Shown here: in pieces, positions 5,210 to 50,660 of the stretch
Layout: each line of letters begins with the position of its first letter
Numbering within the stretch: the first letter of the stretch is position 1
Virus genome (UHGV): UHGV-0390448
Reading direction: 5' to 3' (one strand)
Length of the DNA stretch: 64,000 nt
From: a virus
Position numbers and translations under genes: made by a program
The notes under the pieces: model-generated
Told to the model about the DNA's origin: nothing
The model's database searches: none
The model's input: the letters and a program-made list of their open reading frames with translations, nothing else

Positions 5210-8200
5210 TTAATCCTCCAGTAATTTGTCAAGAGATGGGTCATTGATAGTCGTGCTGGCACGCTGACGAGGTTGTGGTTGTGATGTGTTCACAACTTTG
5301 TCCTGATCGCCTTTGCGGTTGTCTTTGCTTACGCCAAGAATCTCTTTGAGAACGGAATAAACGTTCTCCAGTGCTTTCAACATAGCCGGATCGTTATTTG
5401 CGGTATCTGTTGTTAGCATCTGCCTTATTCCGCTTCGTGCGAGGTCCGTGACGGTTGGTAGCTGAGGAGGCATTGCAAGGAACGGTTCTTTAGCAGCCAC
5501 GCCCGAAGCAAACAGGCTTTGATTGATTGCACCAGTCGTGTCCCTGATCGTATCCGCCGTTTTCTGTATGCCACCATTCAGCCAGCCGCCAACACTTCTT
5601 GTTAACGGACTAATAGCGCGAGCAACATCGGTATTCTGTCCAGAGGACTGCAATACAAAGTCATTTAACATTCCGGTGCTATCGATACCGCCAACAAGTC
5701 GCGAGAGGTTATCTCCAACGGCGGGGAGGACGGCGGAGCCTACCTGTTTAAGCCCTGACACCGTTGAATCAAATAGCGAGCCAAAGAAGCCCCTGTCCTC
5801 ACCTTCAACCACCTTGTAGCCGTTGTCGTAAATCTGCACACCCGCCGGTGTCGATGTGGCACGCTTCCCGCTGATGGTTGCCGGACTCTCCGGAAGCAGG
5901 TCAATGGTTTCTGTATCGCGGTTAACGTTGCGCTTTTGCTGTATAGCCGTAGTGATATCGGCGATCTGTTCCGCCTTCTGGAAACTAAAGTTTTTGCCCG
6001 TTGCTCTGGATATTTTTTCAACAAGGAACTTATCCAATTGCTTGGCTTTTGCTGCTAACGAGGACATCTCTTCCGGAGAACTGACAGGGCCGAGATTTAG
6101 CCCCATATTGGGATCTCCCCCAACTATCCCGGCGATGACGCCCCCAACACCGTCTGCACTCATTAACCGATCCGTCAATTCGGCTGCGGCGGAAGATTTG
6201 CCACTAGCTTTCGCGTGGCTGATCGCCTGGGCATTTTCCTGTTGAGCCGCCTTCGGTTTTTTAGCTGCCTGTGCGTGTTGAACCACATCAGTAGGGGTAG
6301 GCATTACAGCCTGGGCTACGCTTGACGCAGGAATAGCAGAAGATGAGCCGTTGGCGTATTTGACTTTGCTACCGACACTATATTGGGAGTTGCGAGCGAT
6401 TAGAGGACCGCCCTTTTCCTTCTGGATTTTATTAATGTGTTCCAGTGTTTCATCATTGAATTGCCCTTCCCAACGCCCAGTTTTAGCGTTGAATGAACCA
6501 AGAGCTGTTTTGATGAAATTGTTGTTAACCGCCGGGTTCCCCCCCTCCTTCGTCGCAATAGCGCGAACAAGGTGCGTCATAACTTCAGGGTTACTAACGT
6601 CTATTTTATCGTTGGGGGATACCCCTAGATATTTGCTGACGTTTTCAATGTACTGATTGGTGTTGTTCTCTGTTGGTGGTGCCCATTTTGAAATGATGCT
6701 GGATACTGTTTGCAGCTTCTGATACCCGGCGGCAGCACTTGTACCGTTGTAATAACTCGATACCTGGTTTGCCAATGCCCGAATCCCTTCTTCGGGCGTA
6801 TTAAACCGCGCAAAACGCTGTTCGCCTTTCGCGTTCGGCGCTTCCAGCACCGCCCCCTCCTGATTTGCAAAAACCAGGTTCCCCAGGTTGTTATTCCGGT
6901 AATTCCTGTTCTTGGCGTTGCTTCCGCCTATATTCAGATCAGCCGTTATTGTATTTTTTTCAGGCGCTTTAAATTCGTCTGGCGATTTGTAGCCGTGTTC
7001 ACCCACGCCATCCTCACCTCTGCGCCCGCCCTGTAGCTGTCGGGCCAGATCATTAATTGCGGCTACCGTTTGCTTGGTGCCATCTTCAACGGCTTTCTTA
7101 ACCTGCGCAGTGCCTTCGCTGCTTGATGAGAACGATTCTTTTAGGCTGCTGAATGCGTTCTTCGACGCGTCGATAGAACTATTTATGCCGCGAGCGATAT
7201 TGCTGGTATCAAGACTCTGAAGTTTTTGTCCGACACCTTCAAAGCCTAGCGCGGACATCCCCTCGCCAATGAGGTTAGCCGCTCCCGTCACCAGACCGCC
7301 CATATCCAGGACGTTAGCAGCGGCGTAGGCGCTCTTTTGCTGTGTTGTAACGTCCTGCCCTTCCTTCAGGTTATAAGTCGCCCTCTGCGCTTCTGTGTCG
7401 CTGTAGCCGTCTACGGCATCATAACCAACCATAGCCACCTGGCCGATGACTGGAATCGCCCTGAATCCGGCCCTTGCGGCAACACCTCCGGCAGCTTTGA
7501 GAGCCACTTTTCCAGCTTCTTTTTTCGCGATGTTTTCACCAGTGGCAACGGCAACCTTACCCGCCTCTTTCCTGGTAAGGCTTTCCCCAGCGGAAGTTGC
7601 CGCTTTACCAGCGTCTTTCCCTGCCGCTCCACCAGCCGCCGTTTTGGCTACGCTTTCTTCAGTGACCTTACCTGCTCTGGTTTTAACTGAAGATTTATCA
7701 CCCGATGATTTTGGTGAGGTACTACCCTCGTTCCCACCAGCATTTTTTGTCCGATTTTTTTCCTCGCCCGCACTGTTGTTTTTGCCTGGCTGATTTTTTT
7801 TCCCCTCTTTGCCTTCCTGACTCCTGCCCGTCTCAGTAGGTTTGCTGGTGTTTTTTCCCTTCTTGCCCTTGTTTTCTTTACTGTCTCCAGTGCGGCCCGT
7901 GTTGCCACCACGTGCACTGCTACGACCGCGTGTAGGGGATATTTTGGAACGTAATCTGCCACCGCCGAGGAGGTCGCTCAGTTTTAGCCCACTCTCCTGC
8001 GACTTTCGTAGTTTCCGGATCTCTTCGGATACAGTTTCCAGCTCATCAATTATCTGGCTGTCGTTGCGTTGAAGAACTTTCGTTTGTTCTTCGATCGCAC
8101 GTACAGATTTTTCTTTAACGGCTTCAGTAAATGCCTTTGCTGAACCGGGCGCGTTATCTGGAGTCTTCCTTTCATTGTCAGGTGCCGGGTAAGTAATGGC

Positions 8201-9073
8201 GGGGGCTTTTGCGACCACCGGTGCGCCAGCCGCCTTGTCGTTGCCATTATCTATCCATTCTTTCAATGATTTAGCCTTACCAGTAATCTCGCGGCTGATA
8301 TCAAATACGCCCCGTGCTGCCATCCATAGTGGACCACCAGCCCCTACCCCGGCAGCATCGGTTACAGCTCCATCGTCGGCTTTCCCTGAACCATCAACCC
8401 CCATAATGGAACCGAGTTTTCGCAGGAACCCAACCTGTAGTTTTGCCTGTGCGCGTAGCTCATTCTGGCGTGCGAGATCCTCGTTTTTTTTCTGAGAGGC
8501 AAATCGTCCGTTGCTATCCCGTAACGGTGCACCAGAGGTGCTCTGGCTTTCTCTAACTGGTTGTTCTTGCCTTGCAGGCTGAATGTCAGGAGTGAGCAAC
8601 TGAATGCGCTCTGGCGATGACTTCGTGGCTTTGCCTTCAGCCAGTGGTGCTGTTTTTGATTCCGAATGAGCGGTGCGGTGATCTGCTGCTGCTTTTTGCG
8701 GATTATCTATCTCGCTAGTGTTGTTTATACGTAATCTCTGTTTCCTGGTAGGGAGCCGGTCTTTATACGGCCCCTGTGTGAAACTGTTGCGTTGCGCCCC
8801 TGCTTTTCCTGTTCGGGCCAAGCGACGACTTACGCGTCCTTGTGGTGCGTCGCTGGTATCAGGATTGCGTCCGTAAGACTCAAGTGCTTTTTTTATTTCT
8901 GAAAGCGCAGCTAGCTCTTTCGCGTTTGCCGTTTGTATTGCGTCGATTATCGCTATTCGGTCTTTTTTATCGTTCAAAATAACCTCACTTACATCGGCGG
9001 TGATCACCCTGTTTTTTTGGCGTGGGCTTTGTATTTCTCTTCCAGTGCTTTTTCCATATGGAGTGCCCGCCAC
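5210..9073 (-). CDS. Tail tape measure protein
   Basis: 1287-aa ORF with long low-complexity G/A/K-rich central region and coiled-coil segments, located upstream of baseplate genes. Confidence 0.8.
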   Translation of the reverse strand: MAGTPYGKSTGREIQSPRQKNRVITADVSEVILNDKKDRIAIIDAIQTANAKELAALSEIKKALESYGRNPDTSDAPQGRVSRRLARTGKAGAQRNSFTQGPYKDRLPTRKQRLRINNTSEIDNPQKAAADHRTAHSESKTAPLAEGKATKSSPERIQLLTPDIQPARQEQPVRESQSTSGAPLRDSNGRFASQKKNEDLARQNELRAQAKLQVGFLRKLGSIMGVDGSGKADDGAVTDAAGVGAGGPLWMAARGVFDISREITGKAKSLKEWIDNGNDKAAGAPVVAKAPAITYPAPDNERKTPDNAPGSAKAFTEAVKEKSVRAIEEQTKVLQRNDSQIIDELETVSEEIRKLRKSQESGLKLSDLLGGGRLRSKISPTRGRSSARGGNTGRTGDSKENKGKKGKNTSKPTETGRSQEGKEGKKNQPGKNNSAGEEKNRTKNAGGNEGSTSPKSSGDKSSVKTRAGKVTEESVAKTAAGGAAGKDAGKAATSAGESLTRKEAGKVAVATGENIAKKEAGKVALKAAGGVAARAGFRAIPVIGQVAMVGYDAVDGYSDTEAQRATYNLKEGQDVTTQQKSAYAAANVLDMGGLVTGAANLIGEGMSALGFEGVGQKLQSLDTSNIARGINSSIDASKNAFSSLKESFSSSSEGTAQVKKAVEDGTKQTVAAINDLARQLQGGRRGEDGVGEHGYKSPDEFKAPEKNTITADLNIGGSNAKNRNYRNNNLGNLVFANQEGAVLEAPNAKGEQRFARFNTPEEGIRALANQVSSYYNGTSAAAGYQKLQTVSSIISKWAPPTENNTNQYIENVSKYLGVSPNDKIDVSNPEVMTHLVRAIATKEGGNPAVNNNFIKTALGSFNAKTGRWEGQFNDETLEHINKIQKEKGGPLIARNSQYSVGSKVKYANGSSSAIPASSVAQAVMPTPTDVVQHAQAAKKPKAAQQENAQAISHAKASGKSSAAAELTDRLMSADGVGGVIAGIVGGDPNMGLNLGPVSSPEEMSSLAAKAKQLDKFLVEKISRATGKNFSFQKAEQIADITTAIQQKRNVNRDTETIDLLPESPATISGKRATSTPAGVQIYDNGYKVVEGEDRGFFGSLFDSTVSGLKQVGSAVLPAVGDNLSRLVGGIDSTGMLNDFVLQSSGQNTDVARAISPLTRSVGGWLNGGIQKTADTIRDTTGAINQSLFASGVAAKEPFLAMPPQLPTVTDLARSGIRQMLTTDTANNDPAMLKALENVYSVLKEILGVSKDNRKGDQDKVVNTSQPQPRQRASTTINDPSLDKLLED

Positions 9074-9127
9074 TGCGGTAATTGTTCAACGTCACTAACT
9101 GGCTGGTAGCCGTATAACGTCAGGTTA

Positions 9128-10075
9128 TTAATAATGGTTAGCCATCCATTCAGATCTAATTGATGGGATAAACTCTCTATTGAGAAATGGGGCGTACAGC
9201 GTGGTAGTCACGTCTGCACCCTCCTTAGCGTTTTTGCAGCGTTGTGGCGGTAGGATCAGGCGGCTTGTGCCTCGTTCAATAGCCATTTTTAAGCCGTGGC
9301 GAAGGTCTTTCTGCATGAGCTGAATGCGAGCTACCAGAGGGGTAAACTCGGTTTCCAGTGCCATGTTTTCAATGATATCGAATCGTCTGTTTGCAGCTTG
9401 TGTGAAGTCTTCTGGATCGTCGTTCAGAGATGTACACAAGGCCAACTCAGCTATGCGGAGACGAGCAACCTCAGCACTGTACTCTGGAGTTTTCATATCA
9501 GGCAAAGTGGCGCGCATACGCTCAAGCAATTCAGCGCCTTTCCCTGTTAGTGGTTTAAGCGTCCACTCGGTTGGTACTCCGTTTATAGGGACCATAGTTT
9601 TAATAAACGGCGGGACTGTCAGGATTTCTACCGTTTCGGCAAGGTCTGAAAGGTTAATATCTGCGTGATGAACGTTTCCACAGTGACCACACTCGTATGA
9701 GTAAGTCATTACGGCATCTGGTCTGGAATTGACAAAGATCCACCAAAGCGCGGTTCTGCGATCCTGAACTGTCCAGTTTGAGCTGTCGTTAATTTCGCCA
9801 TCTTGCATGGCGTTGAGGTATTCTGTTGTGGTTGCCTCGTCTTCTGCCGGATTGATGTCTGAATATTTCAGGGCATCTTTCACAGTAGGTGCATGAAACT
9901 GAATTTCTATTTCAGGCTGTGAAGGTAATGGGAATTTGGGAATGTTCAAGGATTCCTCCAGAAAAGTCGGTACTCGTTTGGCTGGAGGATAGGGAGTGTG
10001 TGATTTTGACTTTAACCTATTTATCCACAGGGTAGATCCAATAAATAGATCCCAAAGAGAACCAGTAAGATCCAA
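9128..10075 (-). CDS. Hypothetical protein (possible tail assembly protein by position)
   Basis: 315-aa ORF directly upstream of the tape measure gene; its 5-prime end overlaps the DnaA-box/GATC part of the replication origin. Confidence 0.45.
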   Translation of the reverse strand: MDLTGSLWDLFIGSTLWINRLKSKSHTPYPPAKRVPTFLEESLNIPKFPLPSQPEIEIQFHAPTVKDALKYSDINPAEDEATTTEYLNAMQDGEINDSSNWTVQDRRTALWWIFVNSRPDAVMTYSYECGHCGNVHHADINLSDLAETVEILTVPPFIKTMVPINGVPTEWTLKPLTGKGAELLERMRATLPDMKTPEYSAEVARLRIAELALCTSLNDDPEDFTQAANRRFDIIENMALETEFTPLVARIQLMQKDLRHGLKMAIERGTSRLILPPQRCKNAKEGADVTTTLYAPFLNREFIPSIRSEWMANHY

Positions 10076-10234
10076 AGAAGATCCCGGATCGCTGCGAGCC
10101 GCGCCATCACTGGCCTAAATGGAGATCAACATTGACTATGTGCGATTTAATGTTGACTATGTGCGATTTAATGTTGACTGTACGCGATTTAATGTTGACT
10201 ATATGCGATATAAACATTGACTGTATGCGATAAT
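10022..10234. promoter_or_regulatory. Plasmid replication origin: DnaA box, five GATC sites (four in AGATCC context), five ~21-bp direct iterons
   Basis: Perfect DnaA box TTATCCACA at 10022-10030; GATC at 10036, 10049, 10069, 10081, 10088; five tandem iterons (consensus aatgttgactatgtgcgattt) at 10131-10234, immediately upstream of repA. Confidence 0.8.
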
Positions 10235-10311
10235 TCTCTCAGCCCTCAGACGGCTGTGGATAAGTATCTTTCATTTGGCTATAAAGCCCCGTCAATCAAG
10301 GAAATAACAGG

Positions 10312-11196
10312 ATGGTAGATGACAAAAAAGGCTTTCTGAACGTTGAGGAAATATCAGGGAATACCGGAGAAATCCACAGCTTAAAGCCTAACAATAATAG
10401 CACTATTCAGCCGATAGCTTTGTTGCGGCTTGGGGTGTTTGTTCCCACATTGAAATCTACCAGTGTTGCTTTACGTCGCAAGAACGCCGGTTTAACTAAC
10501 TCCACTGATGCGACAGAAGAACTGTCCAGCCTGAAGATTGTAGAGCAGGAAGGGTATCAGGGTATTGAGATTCATGGGCCACGGCTGGATATGGATACTG
10601 ATTTTAAGGTGTGGATAGGCATTACATCTGCATTGTTTGACTATAAACCAGATAATGATGGTGTGATCACCCTGACATTCTCTGAATTTGTGGATCGTTG
10701 CGGTTATCCAAGGAAGCGGCTGTCCAAGGCTTTTCGCAAGAGCATTGGCGACTCTCTAACGCGTATTCAGCAGACGTTGCTGAAGTTCAACTTGCCCACC
10801 AGCAAAGAACATGTTCGTTATATCCAGATGAATTTATTGGCATTTAGTGAACTTGATACTGAAAATGACATTATAAGAATCCAACCGCAGAAGCAGTTGT
10901 CTGAGTTGTATTACGTTGACTATAAGCGAATATTGAAGCTCAAAATGCTCGATAAACTTGGCAGGAAAGAGACAGCCAAGGTGCTTTATACGTTTTTCGA
11001 AGCGTTACCTTCAAACCCTGCGCCAGTGAGTATTGAGCGCCTTCGCGCCAGATTGAACCTCAAATCATCGGTTAGCGTTCAGAACAGTGTGATTCGTAAA
11101 GCCATGAAAGACTTGGAAGCTGTTGAATATCTTAAATTTTCAGAGATAAAGAATGGTCGGAAAATAGGTTTCCAGATCCATAAACGAAATCCATAA
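10312..11196 (+). CDS. repA: Iteron-binding plasmid replication initiator RepA
   Basis: 294-aa ORF flanked upstream and downstream by iterons; sequence (QPIALLRLGVFVP, MDTDFKVW) resembles the RepA family of P1/RepFIB replicons as I recall it. Confidence 0.8.
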   Translation: MVDDKKGFLNVEEISGNTGEIHSLKPNNNSTIQPIALLRLGVFVPTLKSTSVALRRKNAGLTNSTDATEELSSLKIVEQEGYQGIEIHGPRLDMDTDFKVWIGITSALFDYKPDNDGVITLTFSEFVDRCGYPRKRLSKAFRKSIGDSLTRIQQTLLKFNLPTSKEHVRYIQMNLLAFSELDTENDIIRIQPQKQLSELYYVDYKRILKLKMLDKLGRKETAKVLYTFFEALPSNPAPVSIERLRARLNLKSSVSVQNSVIRKAMKDLEAVEYLKFSEIKNGRKIGFQIHKRNP

Positions 11197-11198
11197 CA

Positions 11199-11426
11199 TT
11201 GACTGTGTGCGATTCCAAGCGTTGACTATACGCGACAAACATTGATGCTGGCGGATTTAGTTATTAACTTTTTCACATGATCAATGGATAAACCAGCTAT
11301 TTCATTGAGTATTTGTCGCTTATAGTCAATCTTTCCTCATTTCTTGTCGTGTGTAGTCAATGTTTTGTGATCGGGATCGAGTACAGTCAACATTAGTTGT
11401 AAGCCATTTCGCCTATAGTCAACATT
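11199..11426. repeat. Downstream iteron cluster (incA-like copy-control locus), mixed orientation
   Basis: At least six copies of the ttgactRtRYgcga core: direct at 11199-11216 and 11222-11239, inverted (tagtcaa) at 11318-11332, 11349-11363, 11380-11394 and 11411-11426. Confidence 0.7.
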
Positions 11427-11442
11427 TCTCCATCAGCAGTCT

Positions 11443-11731
11443 TAAGGGCAATTTCTACACCTCTCTGTAGGTGTAGGATTTGCCCTTAAAGATGGGAGAT
11501 TGAGGGCAATTCTTACACCATTAGTGAGTTGGTTGGAGCTTTAACGGCTAACATCATTTGTAATTTATTGATTAATAAGTAATGTGTAAAAATCACCCTC
11601 AGATAGCATCGTATGTTATAGCTATTTTTATAGCACACCTGTTAAGTGTTTTTTGAATGTAACTCATTGATTTTGTTGTGATGTGTAAAAATGCCATCAT
11701 TGACGTAAACAGCAGGTGTAGAAATTGCCCT
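11443..11731. repeat. Unassigned repeat family AGGGCAATTTCTACACC (four copies incl. a 44-bp near-palindrome)
   Basis: Near-palindrome aagggcaatttctacacc-ctctctgt-aggtgtaggatttgccctt at 11444-11487; further copies at 11503-11519 and inverted at 11715-11731; AT-rich region with two tgtgtaaaaat copies lies between. Confidence 0.6.
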
Positions 11732-11775
11732 CAAGTTTGCCCCTTCCCCACCTTCTCGCACTTTAATATTGCATT

Positions 11776-12513
11776 TCAAAACTTGATCACGTTGCTGGCG
11801 GCGCTTTTAAGTGCGCTTGTTGCTAAACCAGCAGCTCCATTGACTAATGCGGACAGGCCGGAACCAGCAGATGTGTATCGCTGGAACGTGATCGGATAGG
11901 ACAAGAATTCGGACACCTGATCACGTGAGCGGCTGATCTCTCCTATTTGAGTAGGAAATACACGCATTTCCTCTTCCAGCTCTTTCCCGCCTTCCTGTGT
12001 AACGCGGTATAGCCTGATATTCATGAGATAATCTGGCGGCAGGTTTAGCGTACCATCGCTATTGGTTACACGGGCGCGGCGCTCCTTGAACCAATTCATT
12101 ATTTTGCCGTCTTCTGTGTCTCTGACCGTCATTGTTACCGGTCCGGCGGTTACGTGCGTTGGCTTATTGAACTCGACGCTACCAATGATTTTGCTTTCTG
12201 TTTCAATATTCCCGCTACTGTAAGTTATGTCCTTAACGAACATATCAAAGCCGCTTAATCCGTCTACATCTACCGTCCACTGCCAGCCCTGGGCATAGCG
12301 GATACGCATAGCCGTAGCAACTACGTTCTTTCCGTAAGCGATGTCATTGCCATAGCTCCCACTAACGCCACTGCCAGACACCGCTCTATCCAGAATGTCG
12401 CTGATAAGGTTGCTGGTGAACGATTTCGCGCTAAACGATACCGCACTGGCTAGCGTTTGCGTTGCAGCACTAAAAATACTCACGTAGCCCTCCGTGTTAA
12501 AAAATGGTAGCAC
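11776..12513 (-). CDS. Hypothetical virion structural protein
   Basis: 245-aa ORF in a long co-directional block with tail sheath and other structural genes; no motif recognised. Confidence 0.4.
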   Translation of the reverse strand: MLPFFNTEGYVSIFSAATQTLASAVSFSAKSFTSNLISDILDRAVSGSGVSGSYGNDIAYGKNVVATAMRIRYAQGWQWTVDVDGLSGFDMFVKDITYSSGNIETESKIIGSVEFNKPTHVTAGPVTMTVRDTEDGKIMNWFKERRARVTNSDGTLNLPPDYLMNIRLYRVTQEGGKELEEEMRVFPTQIGEISRSRDQVSEFLSYPITFQRYTSAGSGLSALVNGAAGLATSALKSAASNVIKF

Positions 12514-21704: not shown

Positions 21705-21880
21705 TTACTTCTCATATTTGTCTCTGATTTGTCTCAAAAGGGTATCATTGGTACATCATGTATCATCTAAGTCTCTTTTGTGTCTCTTTTGTGTCTCTAG
21801 TTTGATGCTTTTTACGCTATCTAACTTCTGGTCTTATTTTGTTTTCTCATATAAAATTCAATTCTTTCTCAAATGTGTCT
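21705..21880. promoter_or_regulatory. parC-like centromere/promoter repeats upstream of parM
   Basis: About seven copies of TTTGTCTC / TGTGTCTC within 170 bp in the position that parC occupies in R1-type parMRC loci. Confidence 0.55.
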
Positions 21881-21895
21881 CAGAAGTGGAGCAAT

Positions 21896-22855
21896 ATGAT
21901 GCGCATTTTTATCGACGATGGTTCTACCAATATCAAAATGCTGTGGGAACAAGACGGGGAAACTCGAACCCATATCTGTCCGAACAGTTTTAAACGTGGA
22001 TGGTCCGCCACATTTGGCGCAGGAAAGCCGTTTAACTACATCATTGATGACGAAAAATATTCATATGACTTGATCTCGCCGGATGTGCTGCCGACGAATA
22101 ACGTTGAATGGCAATACAGCCCGCTTAATGTGCTTGCTGTTCATCATGCCCTGCTTACAAGTGGCATTGAGCCTCAAGAAGTGGAAATAGTTGTCACGTT
22201 GCCACTGGCAGAGTTTTATGACGACGACGCACAATACAACATGAAAAATATTGAGCGGAAAAAGGCCAGCCTGATGCGACCAGTCACCCTTAACAAAGGT
22301 CAGGTTTTTACTATCAAAAAAGTGACTGTGCGCCCGGAGTCAATACCCGCAGGGATCGGTCTGTGCGACAGCCTTGTGCCAGCGCATTCTGTGCTTATTG
22401 TTGATCTTGGTGGGACTACTCTGGATGTGTCGATGGTCGCCGGGCAAATGACCGCCGTTTCTCGCGTATTTGGCGATTCTAATCTCGGCGTTTCGCTGGT
22501 AACTAAAGAGGTCAGACAGGCACTTGCAAAAGCGAATACCGAAACCTCTAATTATAATGTCGATCAATTAATCATTAATCGTGATGATGAGGATTATTTG
22601 ACCGACAATATTAACGATCCGTCTGCTATTGATGATGTTAAGAAAGCCATTTCGTCAAGCATAGAACGACTCCGTACACGCGTACTGGATGTGATCAGTG
22701 ATTTCAAAGGATACACGCATGTTATGGTCATTGGTGGCGGCGCGCCGCTTGTTGCTGATGCTATCCGTGAGCAGGTAAACATTCGTGACGATAGGTTTTT
22801 CGTTGCTGATGATCCACAACTTGCTCTTGTCTATGGTCTAAAATCTATCGGTTGA
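21896..22855 (+). CDS. parM: Actin-like plasmid segregation ATPase ParM/StbA
   Basis: N-terminus MMRIFIDDGSTNIKMLWEQ...NSFKRGW...VHHALLTSG closely parallels R1 ParM (MLVFIDDGSTNIKLQW...); start chosen at the ATGATG after RBS GTGGAG. Confidence 0.85.
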   Translation: MMRIFIDDGSTNIKMLWEQDGETRTHICPNSFKRGWSATFGAGKPFNYIIDDEKYSYDLISPDVLPTNNVEWQYSPLNVLAVHHALLTSGIEPQEVEIVVTLPLAEFYDDDAQYNMKNIERKKASLMRPVTLNKGQVFTIKKVTVRPESIPAGIGLCDSLVPAHSVLIVDLGGTTLDVSMVAGQMTAVSRVFGDSNLGVSLVTKEVRQALAKANTETSNYNVDQLIINRDDEDYLTDNINDPSAIDDVKKAISSSIERLRTRVLDVISDFKGYTHVMVIGGGAPLVADAIREQVNIRDDRFFVADDPQLALVYGLKSIG

Positions 22856-22865
22856 TGAGGTTGCC

Positions 22866-23231
22866 ATGTCTCAGGAACGTCGAAAAGTATTGTTTTATCT
22901 TCGTCCTGGTCTTAACGCCAGTGAGCAATATGCTGATGCAAAACTTGAGGGCCATCCATTAAGAGATCGCAATGATATGGCGCGCACAGCGATGCTTGCA
23001 GGTATCGCTCTTGGCGAGGTTGATAGCAGATTACCTCCCATGTTGGCATCGCTTTTATCCGGTGATAATAGCCCTGAAGTGATCAGAAAAATGCTGGTTT
23101 CATTTCTTGAAATTTCGCCTGAAGTTCGGGAAGCCTCTGAAGGAAACACCTCTGTCTCAGAGGATGTAAAAAAACCAGGCGTTCCGAAAAGCCGCTCTGC
23201 ACAGAATTTGGCAAACTCACTCCCTGATTAA
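22866..23231 (+). CDS. parR: ParR/StbB-like centromere-binding adaptor
   Basis: 121-aa ORF immediately downstream of parM, the invariant position of parR. Confidence 0.6.
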   Translation: MSQERRKVLFYLRPGLNASEQYADAKLEGHPLRDRNDMARTAMLAGIALGEVDSRLPPMLASLLSGDNSPEVIRKMLVSFLEISPEVREASEGNTSVSEDVKKPGVPKSRSAQNLANSLPD

Positions 23232-24575: not shown

Positions 24576-26988
24576 AATTAAGCGTGGCTATAATGTCGTT
24601 AGCTATCATTCGCGTTGATGCTTTACAGGATACAGAGCGACGGGATGGCATAGGATACACCTTGAAGCCATTGCCAACGTAAAGTTCGCGAATGTTAGGC
24701 GCTCCACTGTTTGTTATCACAATTTTCGCCCCGCGTCTGTGAGCATCTACCAGCAGCGACACCAGCCGTTGTTGATCTTCAAACCTAAAGCTATGCCCTG
24801 AGTAATTTGTAAATCCGGTAGTGTCGGGCAATGGTTCATAGGGGGGATCGCAGAAAATCACATCATCATTCCCGGCAGCCTCAATTACACCAGCAAAATC
24901 GCCGGACACAAATTCCGAATACTTTGAAATATCGTCAGCCAGGAACGCCTCCATTTCCGCGAGAGGGAAGTAGGGAGATTTCTGCTTTCCATATCCGACG
25001 TTGAACTCTCCTTTACGGTTATAGCGAGTGACGCCATTAAAACAATGACGATTGAGATACAGGAACGCCGCTGCATGGTGAAGAGAATCATAAGCACCAT
25101 TGTTGAATGCATTGCGAACATTCAAAAATGCATCAGCAGAGTTGTAATCCTGAAAATAACGATATGCCAGTGTGATAAGAGAATACCCTTCACGCTGCAA
25201 TGTCTGATAGAAGTTAATCAGGTCACCGTTAATATCATTAAGCAGGTTGTGGCGAAAACCTGCATTCGTAAATACGGAACCGCCACCAACGAATGGTTCT
25301 ATTAACCGCTTGCCGTGTGGCAGATGCTCAAGCACTGTAGGCAACCCTGAGAATTTACCGCCTACCCATTTGAATATTGGGCGCTCATATTCATCCGGAG
25401 TCCGGAGTTTTCTAGTGTAGGTAATGGTATTTATTGTTTTTTGCTGTTTATCCGCCACGGTCGCAAGAATGCGACACCCAATCCATTGCATAACAGGAAC
25501 TGCCATGCTGTTGCCGATCGCTTTGTAACGCGGTCCGTCAGCTGCAAGCATCGCGGCCTCTTCTTCGCTTAAATCTGGATAGTGATTGCGCAGATATGCC
25601 AGTTCATCTGAATTAACTTTTTTACGCTTTTCCGTAGGGATCAACGTATGCCCATCAGGAAAACCTTGAAGTCTCTCACATTCGACAGGGGTAAGACGGC
25701 GGACAGCTACTTCTTCGTTTCTTACTTCATAGCAAACAGCAGTTGGATTTTGAGCCATTAGAGATGGTGAAGTATTCTTAGTTGCTGCATGTTGTGTACC
25801 ACTCATACGCTCAGGAAAAGCCAATGTAACAAGATGCCCATGGCTTTCTTGCTCACGCGCCCGCAATGTACCATGCCCTTCTGACCAAAAACCTGCTCCA
25901 GTGCTGCTAAAAACGGCAAGGTCAGTGGCATCTTTAAAGTCTCTTGCCTTTACTGTCGATGCGGTTTCATCGTCAATATATTCCCCAAATGCCGCCATCC
26001 TGAAACCGTTTACGGCTTTCGTCGATTTCATATCGGGGGACATGCCAGCGTGTAGGCATGGATTTAGGCTTTCGCCACTGATTGCAGCGCCATTTGCAGT
26101 AATGGCGGAAGCGATTTCCTTCTTTTTTCGGCTCGGCGCAATATTCCGGCGCACGCCTTCGAACTCAAAAAGTACCGTTGCGGGATCGAGGTCTGTTCGA
26201 GCACTTGCGACAACAAACACGCGTCGGCGTCGTTGTGCCACTCCGAAGTATTGGGCATCAAGGATTCTCCAGGCCACTTTTCGCTGCGGTCCATAAATAC
26301 AACCACACTGCGGCCACTTTGGAGCATGGCTACCGGTTTTGGCATCCCACCGCCAGAACGCGTTACTTTTTCGTGATTCAGGTCGATCACCAGGTTCGAA
26401 TGGCGCATTTTCTCCAGCCAATCCGGCAAGGAAACATCCGAATGCGTTATCTGCTGATGACAGGACTCCTGGGACATTTTCCCATACGATGACGGCTGGT
26501 TTGAGAAAGGACTCGGCCCGTTTGTCGTCAATTGCATTTGCAAGCTCCACATATTTTAAAGTTAGCGCGCCGCGCTCATCATCAAGCCCACCACGCAAGC
26601 CCGCGATACTGAATGCCTGACAAGGGGTTCCTCCGACGAGAACATCCGGGGCTTCAATTTTTCCAGCCCGGATCTTCTTAGCAAGTTTTGTCATGTCGCC
26701 AAGGTTGGTGACATGAGGCCAGTGGTGCGCAAGAACGGCAGACGGAAAAGGCTCGATTTCAGCAAACCAAGCCGGACGCATACCCAACGGTTCCCAGGCA
26801 ATGCTTGCGGCTTCAATTCCACTGCAAACCGAACCATATCGAAGATTAATGCTCTGCTTCACCGCCAATGGCCTCCACCAGCGAGCTAAACATCGCGGAT
26901 AATTCGCTTGTGAACAGAATGAAGTCAGCATCAAACCGCTGGGCAACATCTTCACGGTCGATGTCATCGTTCTGGTCATAGAGATCAT
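24574..26988 (-). CDS. dmt: Bifunctional DNA methyltransferase, N-terminal C5-cytosine (Dcm-like) fused to C-terminal N6-adenine (Dam-like) domain
   Basis: N-terminal part has CSGIEAASIAW (motif I-like) and GGTPCQAFSIAG (PCQ motif IV); C-terminal part has FVGGGSVF and DPPY. The true start is probably internal, since the ORF as drawn overlaps the upstream gene by about 140 nt. Confidence 0.8.
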   Translation of the reverse strand: MISMTRTMTSTVKMLPSGLMLTSFCSQANYPRCLARWWRPLAVKQSINLRYGSVCSGIEAASIAWEPLGMRPAWFAEIEPFPSAVLAHHWPHVTNLGDMTKLAKKIRAGKIEAPDVLVGGTPCQAFSIAGLRGGLDDERGALTLKYVELANAIDDKRAESFLKPAVIVWENVPGVLSSADNAFGCFLAGLAGENAPFEPGDRPESRKSNAFWRWDAKTGSHAPKWPQCGCIYGPQRKVAWRILDAQYFGVAQRRRRVFVVASARTDLDPATVLFEFEGVRRNIAPSRKKKEIASAITANGAAISGESLNPCLHAGMSPDMKSTKAVNGFRMAAFGEYIDDETASTVKARDFKDATDLAVFSSTGAGFWSEGHGTLRAREQESHGHLVTLAFPERMSGTQHAATKNTSPSLMAQNPTAVCYEVRNEEVAVRRLTPVECERLQGFPDGHTLIPTEKRKKVNSDELAYLRNHYPDLSEEEAAMLAADGPRYKAIGNSMAVPVMQWIGCRILATVADKQQKTINTITYTRKLRTPDEYERPIFKWVGGKFSGLPTVLEHLPHGKRLIEPFVGGGSVFTNAGFRHNLLNDINGDLINFYQTLQREGYSLITLAYRYFQDYNSADAFLNVRNAFNNGAYDSLHHAAAFLYLNRHCFNGVTRYNRKGEFNVGYGKQKSPYFPLAEMEAFLADDISKYSEFVSGDFAGVIEAAGNDDVIFCDPPYEPLPDTTGFTNYSGHSFRFEDQQRLVSLLVDAHRRGAKIVITNSGAPNIRELYVGNGFKVYPMPSRRSVSCKASTRMIANDIIATLN

Positions 26989-33390: not shown

Positions 33391-33482
33391 AACAGTTCCT
33401 CACAGTCATAACCTGTGGGGAACTGTATGCAGGGTGTGAAATGCGGGAAAGCAGCGTCACCTGGCCTGGTGACGCTGTAAAA

Positions 33483-33764
33483 TTATGCGTGGGAAAATAA
33501 TGGACGGATGTTTGGGCGAGCGGTTTGCGAAGCAACCCAAAGCTCATACTGGGATTGCATACCGGTCCACATTTCGGCACTGGTTCCAAGAGCGGACTCC
33601 AGACGAAGTGCCATATCAGCAGAAATACCTGTTTTTTCGTTCAGAATTCGGGAAAGTGCCGTGCGAGTAATGCCTAATGCAGCAGCTGCGTCTGTGACTG
33701 ACATGTCTCCCAAATATTCACGAAGAACCGCGCCTGGATGCGCGGGATTATGCATACGACTCAT
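33483..33764 (-). CDS. HigA/VapI-type HTH antitoxin-like protein (no cognate HigB adjacent)
   Basis: 93 aa with [13 protein letters not shown] and [38 protein letters not shown], the classical HigA signature. Confidence 0.65.
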
Positions 33765-34060
33765 ATGTGGAAAGCAACCCGTTTACCGGTTGGCAATTCA
33801 ACGTCCAGACTCAACTTTCCACCCATAGCCTCAACGTAACGTTTAAGCGTTGCTACTTTCAAGTCATTGCCTCGTTGTTCAAGTTTTGTGATGGCTGGTT
33901 GACTAATTCCCATCGCATCGGCAACTGTTTTTTGTGATAACTGAAGCTCCTCTCTCAACATCTGCAATCCGACTTCCAGAATCATTTCATCAGCCTGCTC
34001 TTTGATACGAGCTTGGCTTTCAGGGGATTGCGCAGCAATAACTTCTCTTAGAGTTCTCAT
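33761..34060 (-). CDS. XRE-family HTH antitoxin
   Basis: 99 aa with HTH ([21 protein letters not shown]), start overlapping the toxin stop. Confidence 0.6.
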
Positions 34061-34407
34061 TATTTTTTCTCAAGTTCTGCAAGATGGTTGGAAAATTCGT
34101 CGTCTGCAATCCGTATCATTCTTTCGTAGAACTTTTTATCGTTACTCTTATCTCCGGCGCACAGGATTATGGCTTGCCTTACCGGATCAAATGCGAAGAA
34201 TGCTCTGATAGGGCGACCAGCGTACTGAATCCGTAACTCCTTCATGTTTTTATGGCGTGAGCCTTTAACTGTGTCGGCATATGGCCTTGATAATGAAGGG
34301 CCATATGTTTCCAGATTGATCAGGTCAACCAGGATTTTTTCTTTTAATGCAGGTTCCTGTTCCTGGAACCATTCATCAAAAATTTTTCCAAAATAAATTT
34401 GCCACAT
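34060..34407 (-). CDS. RelE/ParE-superfamily toxin (Gp49/DUF891-like)
   Basis: 115 aa; toxin-first order with overlapping HTH antitoxin; sequence pattern of the phage Gp49-like killer family. Confidence 0.55.
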   Translation of the reverse strand: MWQIYFGKIFDEWFQEQEPALKEKILVDLINLETYGPSLSRPYADTVKGSRHKNMKELRIQYAGRPIRAFFAFDPVRQAIILCAGDKSNDKKFYERMIRIADDEFSNHLAELEKK

Positions 34408-34442
34408 AGTTATTCAAAATCCTTTTTAATAAACTACATGTT

Positions 34443-34479
34443 ATAAACTACAGGTTATATCATATAACCTGTAGTTTAT
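34443..34479. promoter_or_regulatory. Perfect 37-bp palindrome upstream of the toxin gene (probable autoregulatory operator)
   Basis: ataaactacaggttatat-c-atataacctgtagtttat, 36 nt upstream of the toxin start codon. Confidence 0.6.
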
Positions 34480-34512
34480 ATTTTCAAGGCCATTTTTTAT
34501 TCGATTTAGCAT

Positions 34513-35166
34513 TTAAAGTATCACGGTATCCTCATCAACTTCTTTCCCTGCCAGTGACTTTGGCTGGGAGGCTGCTGCTTTAACCTTCTCATGCCCAATA
34601 ATGGACAGGAACGAGGCCATTATCCCTGCTTTGTTTTCTTTCTCTACCGCTCCTGTCATTTGTTTCAGGTAATCCGCGCTGGCAACATTGTGGTATACCG
34701 TTGCATAGCAGCACAGAATCATCAGGATGTGCTCTGGTCGGATATCTTGCCAGTTAACTCGATAAACCTCTTCACCGTTGCCGTTGTATTCGGTATCGAC
34801 GATAGAGTCGGGGATCTCAAATGCCCCTTTGTTCTTGTCAGGCAGGGATAGCAGCCTTTGTAGTTTCAGCTCCCGGTATCTTTCCATGCCGACAATGATC
34901 GCCGCTCTGCCGTCGGCGTGCCGTGTTTTTAATGTTACCTGACTGGCACCTGTACCGGCTGAAATGGTTGGCGTGATTTCGTCAACCAGCACCTTAAATT
35001 CACTTTTACGCAGCTCGGCAATTGCTGGTGGAATTTTTCGTTTTTGTTCAATAGCAGATGCAGGGAGCGGCTTTACTTTGTCAATTACAAGCGCGCCGTC
35101 TTTCAGGACTGCCGTAGCCATCAGCGGCTTGTTAGTCGAAAGGCTGAATATTGCGATCTTTTGCAT
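34513..35166 (-). CDS. Hypothetical protein
   Basis: 217-aa ORF; no motif recognised. Confidence 0.45.
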   Translation of the reverse strand: MQKIAIFSLSTNKPLMATAVLKDGALVIDKVKPLPASAIEQKRKIPPAIAELRKSEFKVLVDEITPTISAGTGASQVTLKTRHADGRAAIIVGMERYRELKLQRLLSLPDKNKGAFEIPDSIVDTEYNGNGEEVYRVNWQDIRPEHILMILCCYATVYHNVASADYLKQMTGAVEKENKAGIMASFLSIIGHEKVKAAASQPKSLAGKEVDEDTVIL

Positions 35167-35431: not shown

Positions 35432-36055
35432 ATGAAGGATGGTTTTGTGAAGTTAAGGGTTTTGGGAGCAGTGCTCGCGGTTATATTGGGGGGAGTTTCT
35501 CTTAATGCTGCCTATGCAGGCGCGTTACCTGCAAAGTATGAGGCTGGGCTGAAGGTGTTACGAAACGCCAAAACAAACTATACGCCTGATGAAGTTTCAA
35601 ACTATTGCCAGAAAGAAAATATCCCACTGAAACCTGTAGAGCCATTCTTTAAAAGCAACATAGAGTTCTGTGTATTTGCGTATGCAGCAGATGAAACAGG
35701 AAAGGCCATACAAAAGACAGGGTATTCCACCAAAGACACAATGTCAGTGTTAAGTAACGGCGTGTTGCAGTTTGAGCTTTATCGTCAGCAAGGAATGGGA
35801 GATCTATTGCAGCCTTTGTATGGTCTAGCATTGGTGCCGGAAGGTCAGCAGTTTCTGATCAAAAAAGGCCTCATGAGGCAGGAAGATGTAGCTGGTTTCG
35901 ATGCCATCGTTGCCTATGAAAAACAACTCAAGGAACAGCGCAATAAAAAACCATCTGCCTCATGCGTGCAAAGCAAAACAGCAGAATACAGCGCAGTGGC
36001 TGGGCCTTTAGCCCCACAAATGGCAGAGCAATGGTGTAAACAATACGGGCAATAA
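35432..36055 (+). CDS. Secreted protein with signal peptide, function unknown
   Basis: N-terminus MKDGFVKLRVLGAVLAVILGGVSLNAAYAG is a typical Sec signal peptide. Confidence 0.55.
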   Translation: MKDGFVKLRVLGAVLAVILGGVSLNAAYAGALPAKYEAGLKVLRNAKTNYTPDEVSNYCQKENIPLKPVEPFFKSNIEFCVFAYAADETGKAIQKTGYSTKDTMSVLSNGVLQFELYRQQGMGDLLQPLYGLALVPEGQQFLIKKGLMRQEDVAGFDAIVAYEKQLKEQRNKKPSASCVQSKTAEYSAVAGPLAPQMAEQWCKQYGQ

Positions 36056-36075
36056 GTTACGCAGCGGAGGCAGAA

Positions 36076-36468
36076 TTGAAAAGATTAGCTATTGCTTTAT
36101 TGGCAGCTTTCCCTTTGATCGCTCACGCCGGGAATTTACAAGTGAAGTGCGGTAGGTTTGATATAAAAATCTATCCGAACGCCATATTTCTGAATGGGAA
36201 TAAGGTCGATAACGCGCACCGGAAAACTGAATCTGACGTAATGAGCTATGTGTTCCAGGAGTATGCCGAGATGGGGGGAACTTACACGTTGTACTCGCTG
36301 GATGTTCCATCTCGCGGTGATATGACGTTATCTCATCAATGGCAGAACGCCGATGGCGAAGCTCTGCGCGAGGTTAAAACAGAAAAATGTGGCACTTTCC
36401 ATTCTTTTAAAGGGAAAGCGCCCAATGTTAAATCTACGCTTGAAAAACAGCGTGCTGGTGAGCTTTAA
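36076..36468 (+). CDS. Secreted protein with signal peptide, function unknown
   Basis: N-terminus MKRLAIALLAAFPLIAHAG. Confidence 0.55.
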   Translation: MKRLAIALLAAFPLIAHAGNLQVKCGRFDIKIYPNAIFLNGNKVDNAHRKTESDVMSYVFQEYAEMGGTYTLYSLDVPSRGDMTLSHQWQNADGEALREVKTEKCGTFHSFKGKAPNVKSTLEKQRAGEL

Positions 36469-36803
36469 ACCCCTTTAATCACGGAGATTTCGTTTCCCGC
36501 ACGATAGCGGCGGGGAACGGAACTCTCCATCAGGTCACGAATTACTCCCGCTTCACGCAGTTCCTCTGTCTCCCAGTATCTGTTTGTCACCAGGTCAAGG
36601 CTGGCAATGACTTTATGCCGGTCATTCGGCATTGCTTCTTTTTCAGCCATTATCATCAGTGAGAACTCTTCATCCAGTAGAATTTGATACCAGACTTTTG
36701 ACAGTTCCAACTCTCTAATGAGGGTGAAGCGCCGCTCAATTGTGGCAGCAGAATAAGTGAAATCTATTTTTTTGGTGGCATACATTTTGCTGTGTCCGGT
36801 CAC
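36465..36803 (-). CDS. Hypothetical protein
   Basis: 112-aa ORF downstream of the antirepressor gene on the same strand. Confidence 0.4.
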   Translation of the reverse strand: MTGHSKMYATKKIDFTYSAATIERRFTLIRELELSKVWYQILLDEEFSLMIMAEKEAMPNDRHKVIASLDLVTNRYWETEELREAGVIRDLMESSVPRRYRAGNEISVIKGV

Positions 36804-46323: not shown

Positions 46324-46768
46324 CTATCAAGAACTGCGCGAGGCGGCGGAACAGGCAACGCAAGATGAATGGGTAGCATATATTTTGCCGGGTCATAACG
46401 GCATTTATCCTGCGCGCACGTCTGAGGGTAGGCATTGCGGATACTTTATTGACTGGCCTGGCATTGATGGACAAAGGAATGCTGGTGCTAATGCCCGTTA
46501 TATCGCGGCTATCCCACCAAAAGTTGCGCTGGCACTCCTGGGCGAAATTAAGCGCCTGGAAGACACAAATATTGATGCCATGTGCCGAATTGCAGAACTG
46601 GAGAGCAATCGCGCGACGCTGGCGGCGGAGCAGCGTATTCAGATTGCAATAAATGAACTGGTTGCTCTGGCCCCGTGCCTGGATAAAAGAGCGATGGATG
46701 CACTCTCTGTGACTGTGGTGCACCTGTATAAACTGATTAATAAGGAGGCAACCAGTGAGCGAAATTAA
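46310..46768 (+). CDS. Ead/Ea22-like protein
   Basis: MSKINYQELREAAEQATQ ... KVALALLGEIKRLE ... LESNRATLAAE. Confidence 0.6.
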   Translation: MSKINYQELREAAEQATQDEWVAYILPGHNGIYPARTSEGRHCGYFIDWPGIDGQRNAGANARYIAAIPPKVALALLGEIKRLEDTNIDAMCRIAELESNRATLAAEQRIQIAINELVALAPCLDKRAMDALSVTVVHLYKLINKEATSERN

Positions 46769-47444
46769 TTACCAGGCACTGCGTGAGGCGGCAGTGAAAG
46801 CAACGTGGGGAGACTGGGACTCATATAAACCACACCGTGGCGCACGTGGTTATGAGGTCCGACTAAGTAGTCAGGCCATTGCGCAACACGTTCTGAAAAA
46901 CAACGCTGAATTTATTGCTGCCTTTAATCCAAAGGTTGCTTTGGCACTACTGGATGAGATCAACGCATTAGAGGAAACGCGTATCAACGATGTTTGCCGT
47001 ATTGCGGAACTAACAAAACAACTGGAGTCGGCAAAATCAAAACTCAACGAGCAGCGCGAGCTTTACGAGGGAGTAATCGCGGATGGAGGTAAGCGCATAG
47101 CAGAACTGGAAAAACAATGCGCTGAATCGGAGCGAAAAGCATTAAGCAACTTTGAAGAGTGTGCTGCGATGGCTGAACGTATCGAAGAGTTGGAGCAGGC
47201 CAACACAAGACAGGACGCCAATATAAACCACCAGCAGGAGGGCGTGACTCAATCAGTCACCCGATACATATATCACTACAACGCAGTGAATGGTTCTGAC
47301 TCTATGTCTGGAATTGCGCGGTTAAGTTTCATGATCAAATCACAATCTGACCTTGAAGAACTTAAAAGCGCGCTTAGGAATATTGGTGGTTTCCGTGCGA
47401 AAGCAATTAACTCTCTTTCATATCTTGGATGTGAGGAAGAATAG
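46755..47444 (+). CDS. Ead/Ea22-like protein
   Basis: MSEINYQALREAAVKAT ... KVALALLDEINALEE ... coiled-coil C-terminus. Confidence 0.6.
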   Translation: MSEINYQALREAAVKATWGDWDSYKPHRGARGYEVRLSSQAIAQHVLKNNAEFIAAFNPKVALALLDEINALEETRINDVCRIAELTKQLESAKSKLNEQRELYEGVIADGGKRIAELEKQCAESERKALSNFEECAAMAERIEELEQANTRQDANINHQQEGVTQSVTRYIYHYNAVNGSDSMSGIARLSFMIKSQSDLEELKSALRNIGGFRAKAINSLSYLGCEEE

Positions 47445-47450
47445 CAAACG

Positions 47451-47984
47451 ATGAAAAAAGGATTTAAAGATAATTTCGGTGCAGCGCAAAACACTGGAGA
47501 AATCATTGACGCATTTAATGGGGAGGAAATGCCCACTTTATTCAGAAAAGAATATCCGCGAAAGAGTAGAGCAATAGAATTGCTGTTTATCATTCTGTTT
47601 TTCGTGTTGCTGATACCAATAGCCTCAATATTAGTGACTGTTCTAATGGGAAGAGTATTTGAACCGTTAGTTGAACTGTATATCGATATAGTGTGGACCC
47701 CATTCAGGAAGCTACACAATAAAATTAACCCACATAAGGAAACAGATATGGCAACTTTGACAAAAGAAGATCGTTTTACCAAAAAACAAATCGCCGAGGC
47801 AAAAATCCTCGATAACAACGGAACCTACTTCATCAACGGTTCTATTCTTCCTGTTTATATCAATGAGGATGGAGACACTTACCTTATTGAAGAGTACGAA
47901 AAAGGCGAGCCGAGCGAACACCTCATTAAAGATTTGTTCGCGGATGGCGTTATTGTTGCGGTTAATCCAATCGGATACAACTGA
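47451..47984 (+). CDS. Hypothetical membrane-anchored protein
   Basis: 177-aa ORF with a hydrophobic segment (LLFIILFFVLLIPIASILVTVLM). Confidence 0.4.
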   Translation: MKKGFKDNFGAAQNTGEIIDAFNGEEMPTLFRKEYPRKSRAIELLFIILFFVLLIPIASILVTVLMGRVFEPLVELYIDIVWTPFRKLHNKINPHKETDMATLTKEDRFTKKQIAEAKILDNNGTYFINGSILPVYINEDGDTYLIEEYEKGEPSEHLIKDLFADGVIVAVNPIGYN

Positions 47985-48586: not shown

Positions 48587-49521
48587 CCACTATTACCAAA
48601 GAGTTCACCAAAGAGCAGTTGATTGAGCAGGCTAAGAAGAATATTGAGGTTCTTCGAGTTGCGGTGGAAAGAGTCCCAGGCGCTTATGATGCGGCGGTTA
48701 TTCATCTCAAGCTGGCTGAAATTACGCTGGCATCGCTGGAAGCAGAGCCTGTTCTGTATCAGTCCTGCACACGCCCCACCTGGAATAGCGGAGTTCCGTG
48801 GACGGAATGGAAAGAACGTAGTCGTGAGGGCTACGAAGACGATTTGCGCTTTACAGACACGCCTGACCATGCCGGTTGGATAAACAAATGTCGAAAACTA
48901 TATACCACTCCGCCAGCACCGATAGCGTTAGAGGCCATTGAAAACGCAATTGAATATATCCGCAGTATCGCTTTTCACATCGATGAAGACGATTACCACG
49001 GCAAGCATATTGCGTATTTCATGCGACAAGCACTGGTCTGGCTGGAAGGGCATTCATGCAGCAACGACAGACAGGGTAAAGCCGAGAATCAACCAGTACG
49101 CGGCAACCAGACTGCCGAATCCAATCGCGGTAATGAGTGGACCGGCAATCCTGATATTGATAACGCCATCATCATGCTCGATCGCATAGATACGCTGGAA
49201 AGTTGCGATGATGACCGTATTGAGGCGGTTAAGGCTGTTTTGCGTAGACTGGCTGGCAACTATCCGGTAACTCCGGATGGTTGGATAAGCTGTAGTGAGC
49301 GAATGCCAGAAATGGGAGAGCGACAATGCTATGTGTTAGCAGCTGACTTTAAAAACAACTACCCACCAAACATCCCCAACACTCAGGTCGGCGTATATGG
49401 CGACTGGTTTAATGATGGCAATCCCACTTGGGATGACGGTGATGGCGAAGACCTGTATCTCAAAGAGGTAACCCACTGGATGCGGCTACCGGAACCGCCG
49501 CAGGAGGTTAACCGTGGCTAA
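48583..49521 (+). CDS. Hypothetical protein
   Basis: 312-aa ORF; ATGA overlap with the upstream gene. Confidence 0.45.
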   Translation: MTTITKEFTKEQLIEQAKKNIEVLRVAVERVPGAYDAAVIHLKLAEITLASLEAEPVLYQSCTRPTWNSGVPWTEWKERSREGYEDDLRFTDTPDHAGWINKCRKLYTTPPAPIALEAIENAIEYIRSIAFHIDEDDYHGKHIAYFMRQALVWLEGHSCSNDRQGKAENQPVRGNQTAESNRGNEWTGNPDIDNAIIMLDRIDTLESCDDDRIEAVKAVLRRLAGNYPVTPDGWISCSERMPEMGERQCYVLAADFKNNYPPNIPNTQVGVYGDWFNDGNPTWDDGDGEDLYLKEVTHWMRLPEPPQEVNRG

Positions 49522-49697
49522 CCTGCAACTTATCCTCAAAGGTGAAAAGATTTGAGGATTCGCATCATTAATAACACCGACAAGCATCCGGAAGATTATT
49601 TGGATTGCTCGTTAGCAGAGCGCGTGGAATTGATATAAGAAAATCTCCGCACATCGGCAACACACAGCTAAATATGTTCGCAATAAAGGGTAAATCA

Positions 49698-50099: not shown

Positions 50100-50105
50100 C
50101 ACGGA

Positions 50106-50581: not shown

Positions 50582-50660
50582 GTGGTCTTATTCCCCACTT
50601 CATAACGGATATCACTCTCGTGATAACGGATATTCCAATTTTGATAACGGATAAGGCCAA

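Follow-up and report, generated by a model that had tools for sequence, protein, structure and literature searches.

A P1-type replicon related to that of p0111 appears to have replaced a RepE-like replication module in a D6-like phage-plasmid

How is the phage-plasmid represented by virus genome UHGV-0390448 maintained, and where did its replicon come from? The question is raised by one locus in the 64,000-nucleotide stretch of this genome that we analyzed (the window), where the initial annotation had placed, at positions 10022-11426, a replicon with the layout of the P1 oriR-repA-incA region and iterons unlike those of P1, and had proposed a replicon swap within a P1-family backbone. All elements that it listed are present at these positions, and the limits given by homology breaks against sister plasmids (10007-11431) are nearly the same. 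Judging from comparative sequence analysis, this ~1.4-kb cassette, with repA as its only open reading frame (ORF), very probably serves as the working replicon by which a D6-like phage-plasmid is maintained as a plasmid; it would be a theta replicon of the P1 type, controlled by iterons, that entered by cassette replacement. The module belongs to the P1 RepA/RepFIB family, with the p0111 replicon of P1-like phage-plasmids as its nearest relative; it is a diverged new lineage in an already known replicon family, gained by an already known process.

The junctions of the cassette are seen most directly in a comparison with plasmid pEC361_3 (NZ_AP027414), which is 98.0% identical to the window up to position 10006 and 99.7% identical from position 11432, with a D6-type origin and rep in between; because homology ends and resumes at these points, the cassette is taken to span 10007-11431. 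The interval is without a blastn match in phage D6; CP085065 and five other E. coli plasmids have it at 98.7-98.8% identity. What D6 has in this same slot, flanked by the pmgB-like and tub-like genes, is orf42 (annotated "repA?"), a homologue of the mini-F initiator RepE (NCBIfam RepE, 280 bits; PDB 1REP, E = 1e-73; 48% identity to F RepE). The plan of the D6 replicon is like that of the window's cassette, with a DnaA box, an AT-rich segment with GATC sites, five direct copies of the iteron GGTGTAAGATTTGCCCTCA upstream of orf42, the rep gene itself, and more iteron copies in both orientations downstream. The two initiators are nevertheless distinct: the window's RepA is 25% identical to orf42 in a forced global alignment, and the BLASTP match is not significant (E = 3.7). 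The D6 iterons resemble the F iteron TGTGACAAATTGCCCTC, offset by one base; given this offset, and since a position weight matrix (PWM) of the D6-type iterons gave no ungapped matches in F ori2/incC, we do not claim that they cross-react with F RepE.

Directly to the right of the cassette the window retains what seem to be remains of the displaced module, namely a 14-bp scar of the 3' end of a D6-type rep and its downstream control iterons, now orphaned (Table 1). The orphan iterons score 23-29.5 with the PWM built from the five D6 origin iterons, and tblastn finds no D6-type Rep in the window (best E above 2), so that of a D6-type replicon only the downstream iterons and the scar are left. 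Because both were kept, the direction of the swap can be read as RepE-like to P1-type, that is, the RepE-like origin and rep of a D6-like ancestor appear to have been replaced by the P1-type module. The opposite course, in which the P1-type cassette was ancestral and a RepE-like replicon replaced it in the sister plasmids, would account for the presence of both states on nearly identical backbones, and the D6-type module evidently also moves, its Rep being 98.4% conserved across backbones that differ by 20-30% in DNA. Against this, the retained rep end and downstream iterons make sense only if the D6-type module came first, and about 140 D6-like plasmids carry that module versus two with the cassette; we therefore regard the reverse swap as hardly credible. 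As an observation in its own right, the D6-type Rep proteins of D6 (orf42; positions 9842-10597 of locus L005) and pEC361_3 (2237-2992 of locus L006) share this 98.4% protein identity while the neighbouring backbone DNA is only 70-80% identical, far better conservation than in the backbone, which suggests that the D6-type module has also been exchanged or homogenised among D6-like backbones.

Replacement of a RepE-like by a P1-type module upholds the swap that the initial annotation had proposed, in that sister plasmids 98-99.7% identical in the flanks have a different rep and different iterons; its P1-family backbone has to be amended to a D6-like one, a distant relative of P1. The original formulation, in which the IncY replicon native to a P1 (Punavirus) backbone gave way to one with a new iteron family, draws on the P1-like layout with iterons unlike those of P1 and on the IncY-to-p0111 exchange documented in true P1-like elements, in about half of which p0111 substitutes for IncY (PMC9603915). 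It is, however, at odds with the backbone, since 72% of the window aligns collinearly to D6 (73-98% identity) and the only megablast match to P1 and P7 is one 0.7-kb tail-fibre piece; with the location of the replicon, between pmgB-like and tub-like genes and with no adjacent parAB; and with the nature of both modules, the displaced replicon being RepE-like and the iteron family that of p0111. A P1 backbone is accordingly a most improbable explanation. The replication module alone (origin, repA, and control iterons) seems to have moved into the D6-like backbone, with no partition genes along: parAB follows the replicon in P1 and in SJ46 and is not adjacent to the cassette here, and the StbA/StbB-type genes of the D6-like backbone are located elsewhere, away from the replicon.

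Table 1. Features of the replicon cassette and its surroundings (positions in the window)
Feature	Position	Strand	Remarks
Cassette (oriR, repA, control iterons), apparently swapped in	10007..11431	.	Sister-plasmid homology breaks at both edges
Perfect DnaA box TTATCCACA, left origin edge	10021..10029	+	In alignment, opposite the second box of the annotated tandem pair in P1
Cluster of six GATC (Dam) sites, then GC-rich spacer	10035..10127	.	Sites at 10035, 10048, 10069, 10080, 10087, 10124
Five direct 21-bp origin iterons, core TTGACTRTRYGCGAT	10128..10233	+	Starts 10128, 10149, 10170, 10191, 10213; spacing 21/21/21/22
Second perfect DnaA box (TGTGGATAA on + strand), between iterons and repA	10255..10263	-	Not in the initial annotation; P1 has DnaA-box-like sequence on that side
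repA, 294-residue Rep3-family (WH1/WH2) initiator	10312..11196	+	Pfam Rep3_C E = 7.5e-6, Rep3_N E = 7e-4
Iteron-like 17-mer CGTTGACTATAAGCGAA inside repA (codons for YVDYKRI)	10914..10930	+	PWM score 18.1 of 25.2
Direct control iterons, two good and one degenerate	11195..11259	+	Copies at 11197, 11220, degenerate near 11240; first overlaps repA stop codon
Four inverted control iterons	11313..11426	-	Copies at 11315, 11346, 11376, 11408; spaced 30-32 bp
Apparent scar of displaced D6-type rep, last codons and stop, ATCAGCAGTCTTAA	11432..11445	+	Encodes ...QQS*; pEC361_3 and D6 alignment; D6 orf42 ends ...TYQQS*
Orphan D6-type (RepE-like) control iterons	11443..11733	.	Strong copies 11443-, 11469+, 11501-, 11714+; two weak
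Left flank, pmgB-like tail morphogenesis gene, D6-like backbone	9125..9949	-	Homology
Right flank, tub-like tail tube gene, D6-like backbone	11776..12483	-	Homology

What makes the cassette P1-type is the combination of RepA homology, five iterons, a DnaA/GATC segment, and a downstream iteron locus in two orientations. The P1 record has its DnaA site, five Dam sites, five incC iterons, repA, and nine incA iterons in the same order as the window, and the likeness extends to details, bearing out the oriR-repA-incA layout that had been proposed: P1 incC iterons 14-10 show the same 21/21/21/22 spacing as the window's origin iterons, and incA iteron 9 starts at the repA stop codon, which the window's first control iteron overlaps. 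The P1 incA locus is composed of three direct and six inverted iterons, the inverted ones about 31 bp apart, nine in all versus six or seven in the window (two direct, one degenerate, and four inverted). On the left side of the origin the window has one good DnaA box and P1 two; the 64-kb window contains three perfect DnaA boxes altogether. The GATC sites are concentrated to six in 93 bp, versus a window mean of 3.4 per kb, and stand in the contexts AGATCC (four), GGATCG (one), and AGATCA (one), so the initial count of five GATC sites in heptamer context was approximately right. The whole stretch 10021-10117 is 76.5% identical in nucleotide sequence to the P1 oriR segment that holds the five annotated Dam sites.

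P1, p0111 elements, and many large plasmids of Klebsiella and E. coli have versions of this stretch, with its DnaA box, GATC heptamers, and GC-rich spacer, that are 76-81% identical in DNA, next to iterons and a repA that have diverged past recognition at the DNA level. From this juxtaposition of a conserved segment and diverged iterons and repA, the origin can be seen as a conserved half that faces host factors, joined to a half that determines specificity. In many RepFIB/SSU5-type plasmids, too, the part of the origin with the DnaA box and GATC sites is about 80% identical in DNA to the window.

The iterons themselves are not those of P1. The iteron string given initially, aatgttgactatgtgcgattt, corresponds exactly to positions 10149-10169, and the iteron 19-mer, allowing up to three mismatches, is matched five times, versus 0.04 expected. 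The P1 iteron is GATGTGTGCTGGAGGGAAA, and PWMs built from P1 and from the window (core as in Table 1) give no cross-hits in each other's replicons. When iterons and RepA were aligned with canonical P1, the check that the initial annotation had put forward for its claim of non-P1 iterons, neither proved to be the P1 version: RepA is 41% identical to P1 RepA over 271 amino acids (BLASTP, E = 2e-70). In proven IncY members, by comparison, RepA is at least about 72% identical to that of P1 (PMC10999674), so that by iterons and RepA alike the cassette falls outside IncY. The iteron family does differ from that of P1, as had been claimed; it is not new, and is instead the family found in p0111.

This is seen when the cassette is compared with the p0111 replicons of SJ46 and JL22, whose RepA is 85.4% identical to the window's RepA and of the same length (294 amino acids with the RefSeq start). 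JL22, SJ46, and RCS47 carry the p0111 type, the JL22 repA being the PlasmidFinder entry "p0111" (PMC9603915). The p0111 DNA is 78% identical to the window over 10021-11258 and includes the same DnaA box and GATC region. With the PWM built from the window's five origin iterons (maximum score 25.2), the SJ46 iterons score 15-25 bits and fall into the same pattern of five origin, one intragenic, two direct, and four inverted copies, a pattern found in 36 of the 39 p0111 loci from IMG/VR, and some 15-bp iteron cores, such as TTGACTGTACGCGAT, are identical between the window and p0111. The surroundings differ, in that p0111 lies on a P1 backbone with an extra ORF and parAB behind it, whereas the window's cassette sits between D6-like tail genes. 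Other relatives are more remote. In tblastn searches against phage records, the matches to RepA fall into bands of 85% identity (SJ46, RCS47, JL22), 44-46% (SSU5-type), and 41% (P1 and P7), and RepA proteins of the RepFIB/IncFIB and SSU5 types are 44-47% identical over nearly the full length, far more distant than p0111.

At the codon level, the window's repA and that of SJ46 differ at a proportion of 0.75 of synonymous sites (pS, saturated) and 0.10 of nonsynonymous sites (pN). The divergence is greatest in the middle of the gene, codons 101-190 (pN 0.18), and least in the C-terminal 104 codons, with pN 0.029 and two substitutions in about 104 residues. Because pS is saturated while pN is low, and lowest in the C-terminal part, we take the window's replicon to be a long-separated sister lineage of p0111 with the same iteron family, its divergence apparently old and evenly spread, and repA to be, by all indications in its codons, under strong purifying selection. 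Typing tools assign p0111 by near-identity; with 78% identity in DNA, 85.4% in protein, and no intermediates, the cassette falls outside such a definition.

Whether the lineage would be compatible with p0111 is a separate matter. As the iteron family is shared, p0111 is by analogy with IncY a likely incompatibility partner, more so than the existence of a new group would be likely: according to a passage in PMC10999674 that cites Fu et al. 1997, elements whose RepA is only 72-73% identical to P1 RepA are experimentally IncY-incompatible with P1. That the cassette instead represents a separate incompatibility group, able to coexist with IncY as well as p0111 plasmids, we consider doubtful, although such a group would fit the 78% DNA and 85% protein identity to p0111 without intermediates, the separate MOB-suite label (rep_cluster_2164, versus "IncHI1B" for a p0111-type plasmid), and the divergence of RepA codons 101-190. 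The iteron consensus that it shares with p0111, identical 15-bp cores included, and the near-invariant C-terminal domain of RepA speak against it, as does the IncY precedent just cited. The cassette and p0111 were found together in none of the six carrier genomes (414 records of the two types in 414 genomes), where only about 0.45 such cases would be expected, too few for co-occurrence to bear on compatibility.

Could the cassette be an inactive relic, with the plasmid maintained by another replicon? No clear repA promoter was found, as a relic might lead one to expect. Yet the repA ORF is intact and evidently under strong purifying selection, with 99.7-100% identity among all carriers, which were isolated independently from humans, pigs, and a wild bird; the cis elements are all complete; and no competing initiator was found. 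Neither the window nor the remainder of the complete 94-kb CP085065 encodes a D6-type Rep, and no other Rep3-type initiator was found on that plasmid, where RepA is 100% identical to WP_016262357.1, the only other replication gene is a lytic repL homologue, and MOB-suite lists a single rep cluster. We therefore judge a relic to be very improbable, and return to the cassette as the working replicon. By local BLAST, neither the window nor the remaining 32 kb of CP085065 has a further copy of the cassette; a second copy, suggested by megablast matches in "2 places" in sister records, was rejected on this ground, the matches being probably split alignments over repeats.

Several points nevertheless weigh against a working P1-type replicon gained by replacement. 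Pfam Rep3_C scores above its cut-off and Rep3_N just below (20.4 versus a gathering cut-off of 22.4), and Rep3 is the only family match, searches of RepA against PDB sequences and NCBIfam having given none. A consensus scan of 9950-11850 for promoters and terminators showed no convincing sigma-70 promoter in or beside the origin iterons and none in 10128-10311; two weak TATAAA candidates seen by eye (10209-10214 and 10280-10285) lack conservation in SJ46, and the stretch from the iterons to repA is the least conserved part in comparison with SJ46 (52-58%), so that P1-like autoregulation from a promoter embedded in the iterons is putative here. No RepA between 85% and 99% identity was found, and hence no donor: when contigs from 185,579 species, each represented by a single genome, were scanned, the sole match was a p0111-type locus at 85%, and IMG/VR yielded the two D6-like carriers and 44 p0111-type loci, with no intermediate lineage. 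Finally, replication activity, dependence on Dam, DnaA, and chaperones, and handcuffing are properties carried over from P1.

By homology with P1, and in line with iteron plasmids in general (PMC10999674, PMC6090056) and the P1 literature, initiation would proceed as follows. RepA monomers, activated by DnaK/DnaJ/GrpE, would bind the five origin iterons, and host DnaA the boxes that flank the origin. The GATC repeats, when methylated by Dam, would be needed for opening, mark the opened region, and allow its sequestration. The six or seven downstream iterons would limit copy number by titration of RepA and by handcuffing with the origin, and would determine incompatibility. The view of how such replicons work is unchanged by the present finding.

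A PWM scan of the window gave nothing comparable beyond the origin iterons, the downstream iterons, and the site inside repA; the degenerate direct copy was recovered by repeat search only. The intragenic site occupies identical codons in SJ46 and in every one of the 39 p0111 loci scanned; P1 is without a counterpart. It could be a thirteenth RepA-binding site, a lead only: 16 of its 17 bases match SJ46, and about 9% of repA 17-mers are equally conserved. On this account we rejected the interpretation of the intragenic iteron as a selected site.

With carriers defined by the cassette at ≥95% DNA identity, the lineage is rare. It occurs in two of 72,556 PLSDB plasmids, in six of 5,426 complete E. 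coli genomes (in all cases on plasmids of 93-96 kb), and in two IMG/VR contigs, compared with about 400 records of the p0111 type in each of PLSDB and the complete E. coli collection. D6-like flanks are present in about 140 PLSDB plasmids, nearly all with a slot of D6-type length. One carrier, CP042620, combines the cassette (RepA 99.7%) with a backbone that is nearer to D6, and its junctions differ slightly on both sides, which implies that the cassette moved between D6-like backbones through flanking homology or was acquired more than once.

Neither the replicon kind, nor the iteron family, nor the exchange process is new (PMC9603915, PMC10879196), and RefSeq already has an entry for the RepA protein, generically named; replicon exchange in phage-plasmids has been proposed by Pfeifer and Rocha as an escape from incompatibility (PMC10879196). 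A partial literature search brought up no paper on a third P1-type lineage on D6-like elements, nor on a chimeric locus in which RepE-type iterons are left as orphans. With its exact junctions and its scar, the locus is a clean natural example of an exchange confined to the replication module, in this case across two branches, P1-like and D6-like, of a single phage-plasmid group. There is also a practical side. Typing schemes recognise IncY and p0111 for P1-like elements, and according to a 2025 preprint (10.1101/2025.09.12.675607) replicon typing tools do not cover D6; a third, rare P1-type lineage on a D6-like backbone could be mis-typed or missed. In the PLSDB/MOB-suite labels, the p0111-type P1-like plasmid NZ_CP062860.1 appears as "IncHI1B", the window type as "rep_cluster_2164", and the D6 type as "rep_cluster_1704", from which we conclude that automated typing of phage-plasmid replicons is inconsistent or misleading.

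Do the orphan iterons still have a function? They might bind the Rep of D6-type phage-plasmids in trans, by titration or handcuffing, and so displace the ancestral type while their own element, which no longer needs that Rep, is immune; in that case the swap would have brought an escape from incompatibility and at once preserved a one-way weapon of incompatibility against D6-type relatives. Part of the array is kept in every carrier examined. The orphan region is, however, polymorphic in length among relatives that are otherwise 98-99% identical, whereas the slot length of D6-type plasmids is very uniform: about 89 bp are missing in CP085065 and in the IMG/VR locus L011, 46 bp (11454-11499) are missing in locus L012, and in CP042620 the first and third orphan iterons are fused. 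This deletion polymorphism looks like that of a decaying relic and speaks against the orphan iterons being under strong selection, which makes a one-way weapon unlikely. The AT-rich stretch between the orphan iterons also contains a direct repeat (11559-11593 and 11658-11692, 99-bp spacing), and the deletion in CP085065 and L011 lies here.

Elsewhere in the element, the region to the left of the pmgB-like gene is occupied by a gene for a 1,287-residue, Sit-like tail injection transglycosylase (5210-9073, minus strand) with long low-complexity stretches rich in Lys, Gly, Ser, and Ala; two of its internal segments, 5833-6356 and 7463-8933, are not matched in D6 by blastn. Further segments of more than 1 kb without a blastn match in D6 (25405-26844, 33451-34514, 35484-36550, 46342-47529, 49283-51720, and 53885-55051) are presumably accessory or variable genes. 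Conversely, the glutaminyl-tRNA synthetase region of D6 (D6 positions 59,925-61,586) has no counterpart in the window alignment. In NZ_CP085065.1, outside the part that corresponds to the window, genes for a TnpB-family RNA-guided endonuclease and for a HicA toxin lie beside head genes (positions 21860-23029 of locus L058).

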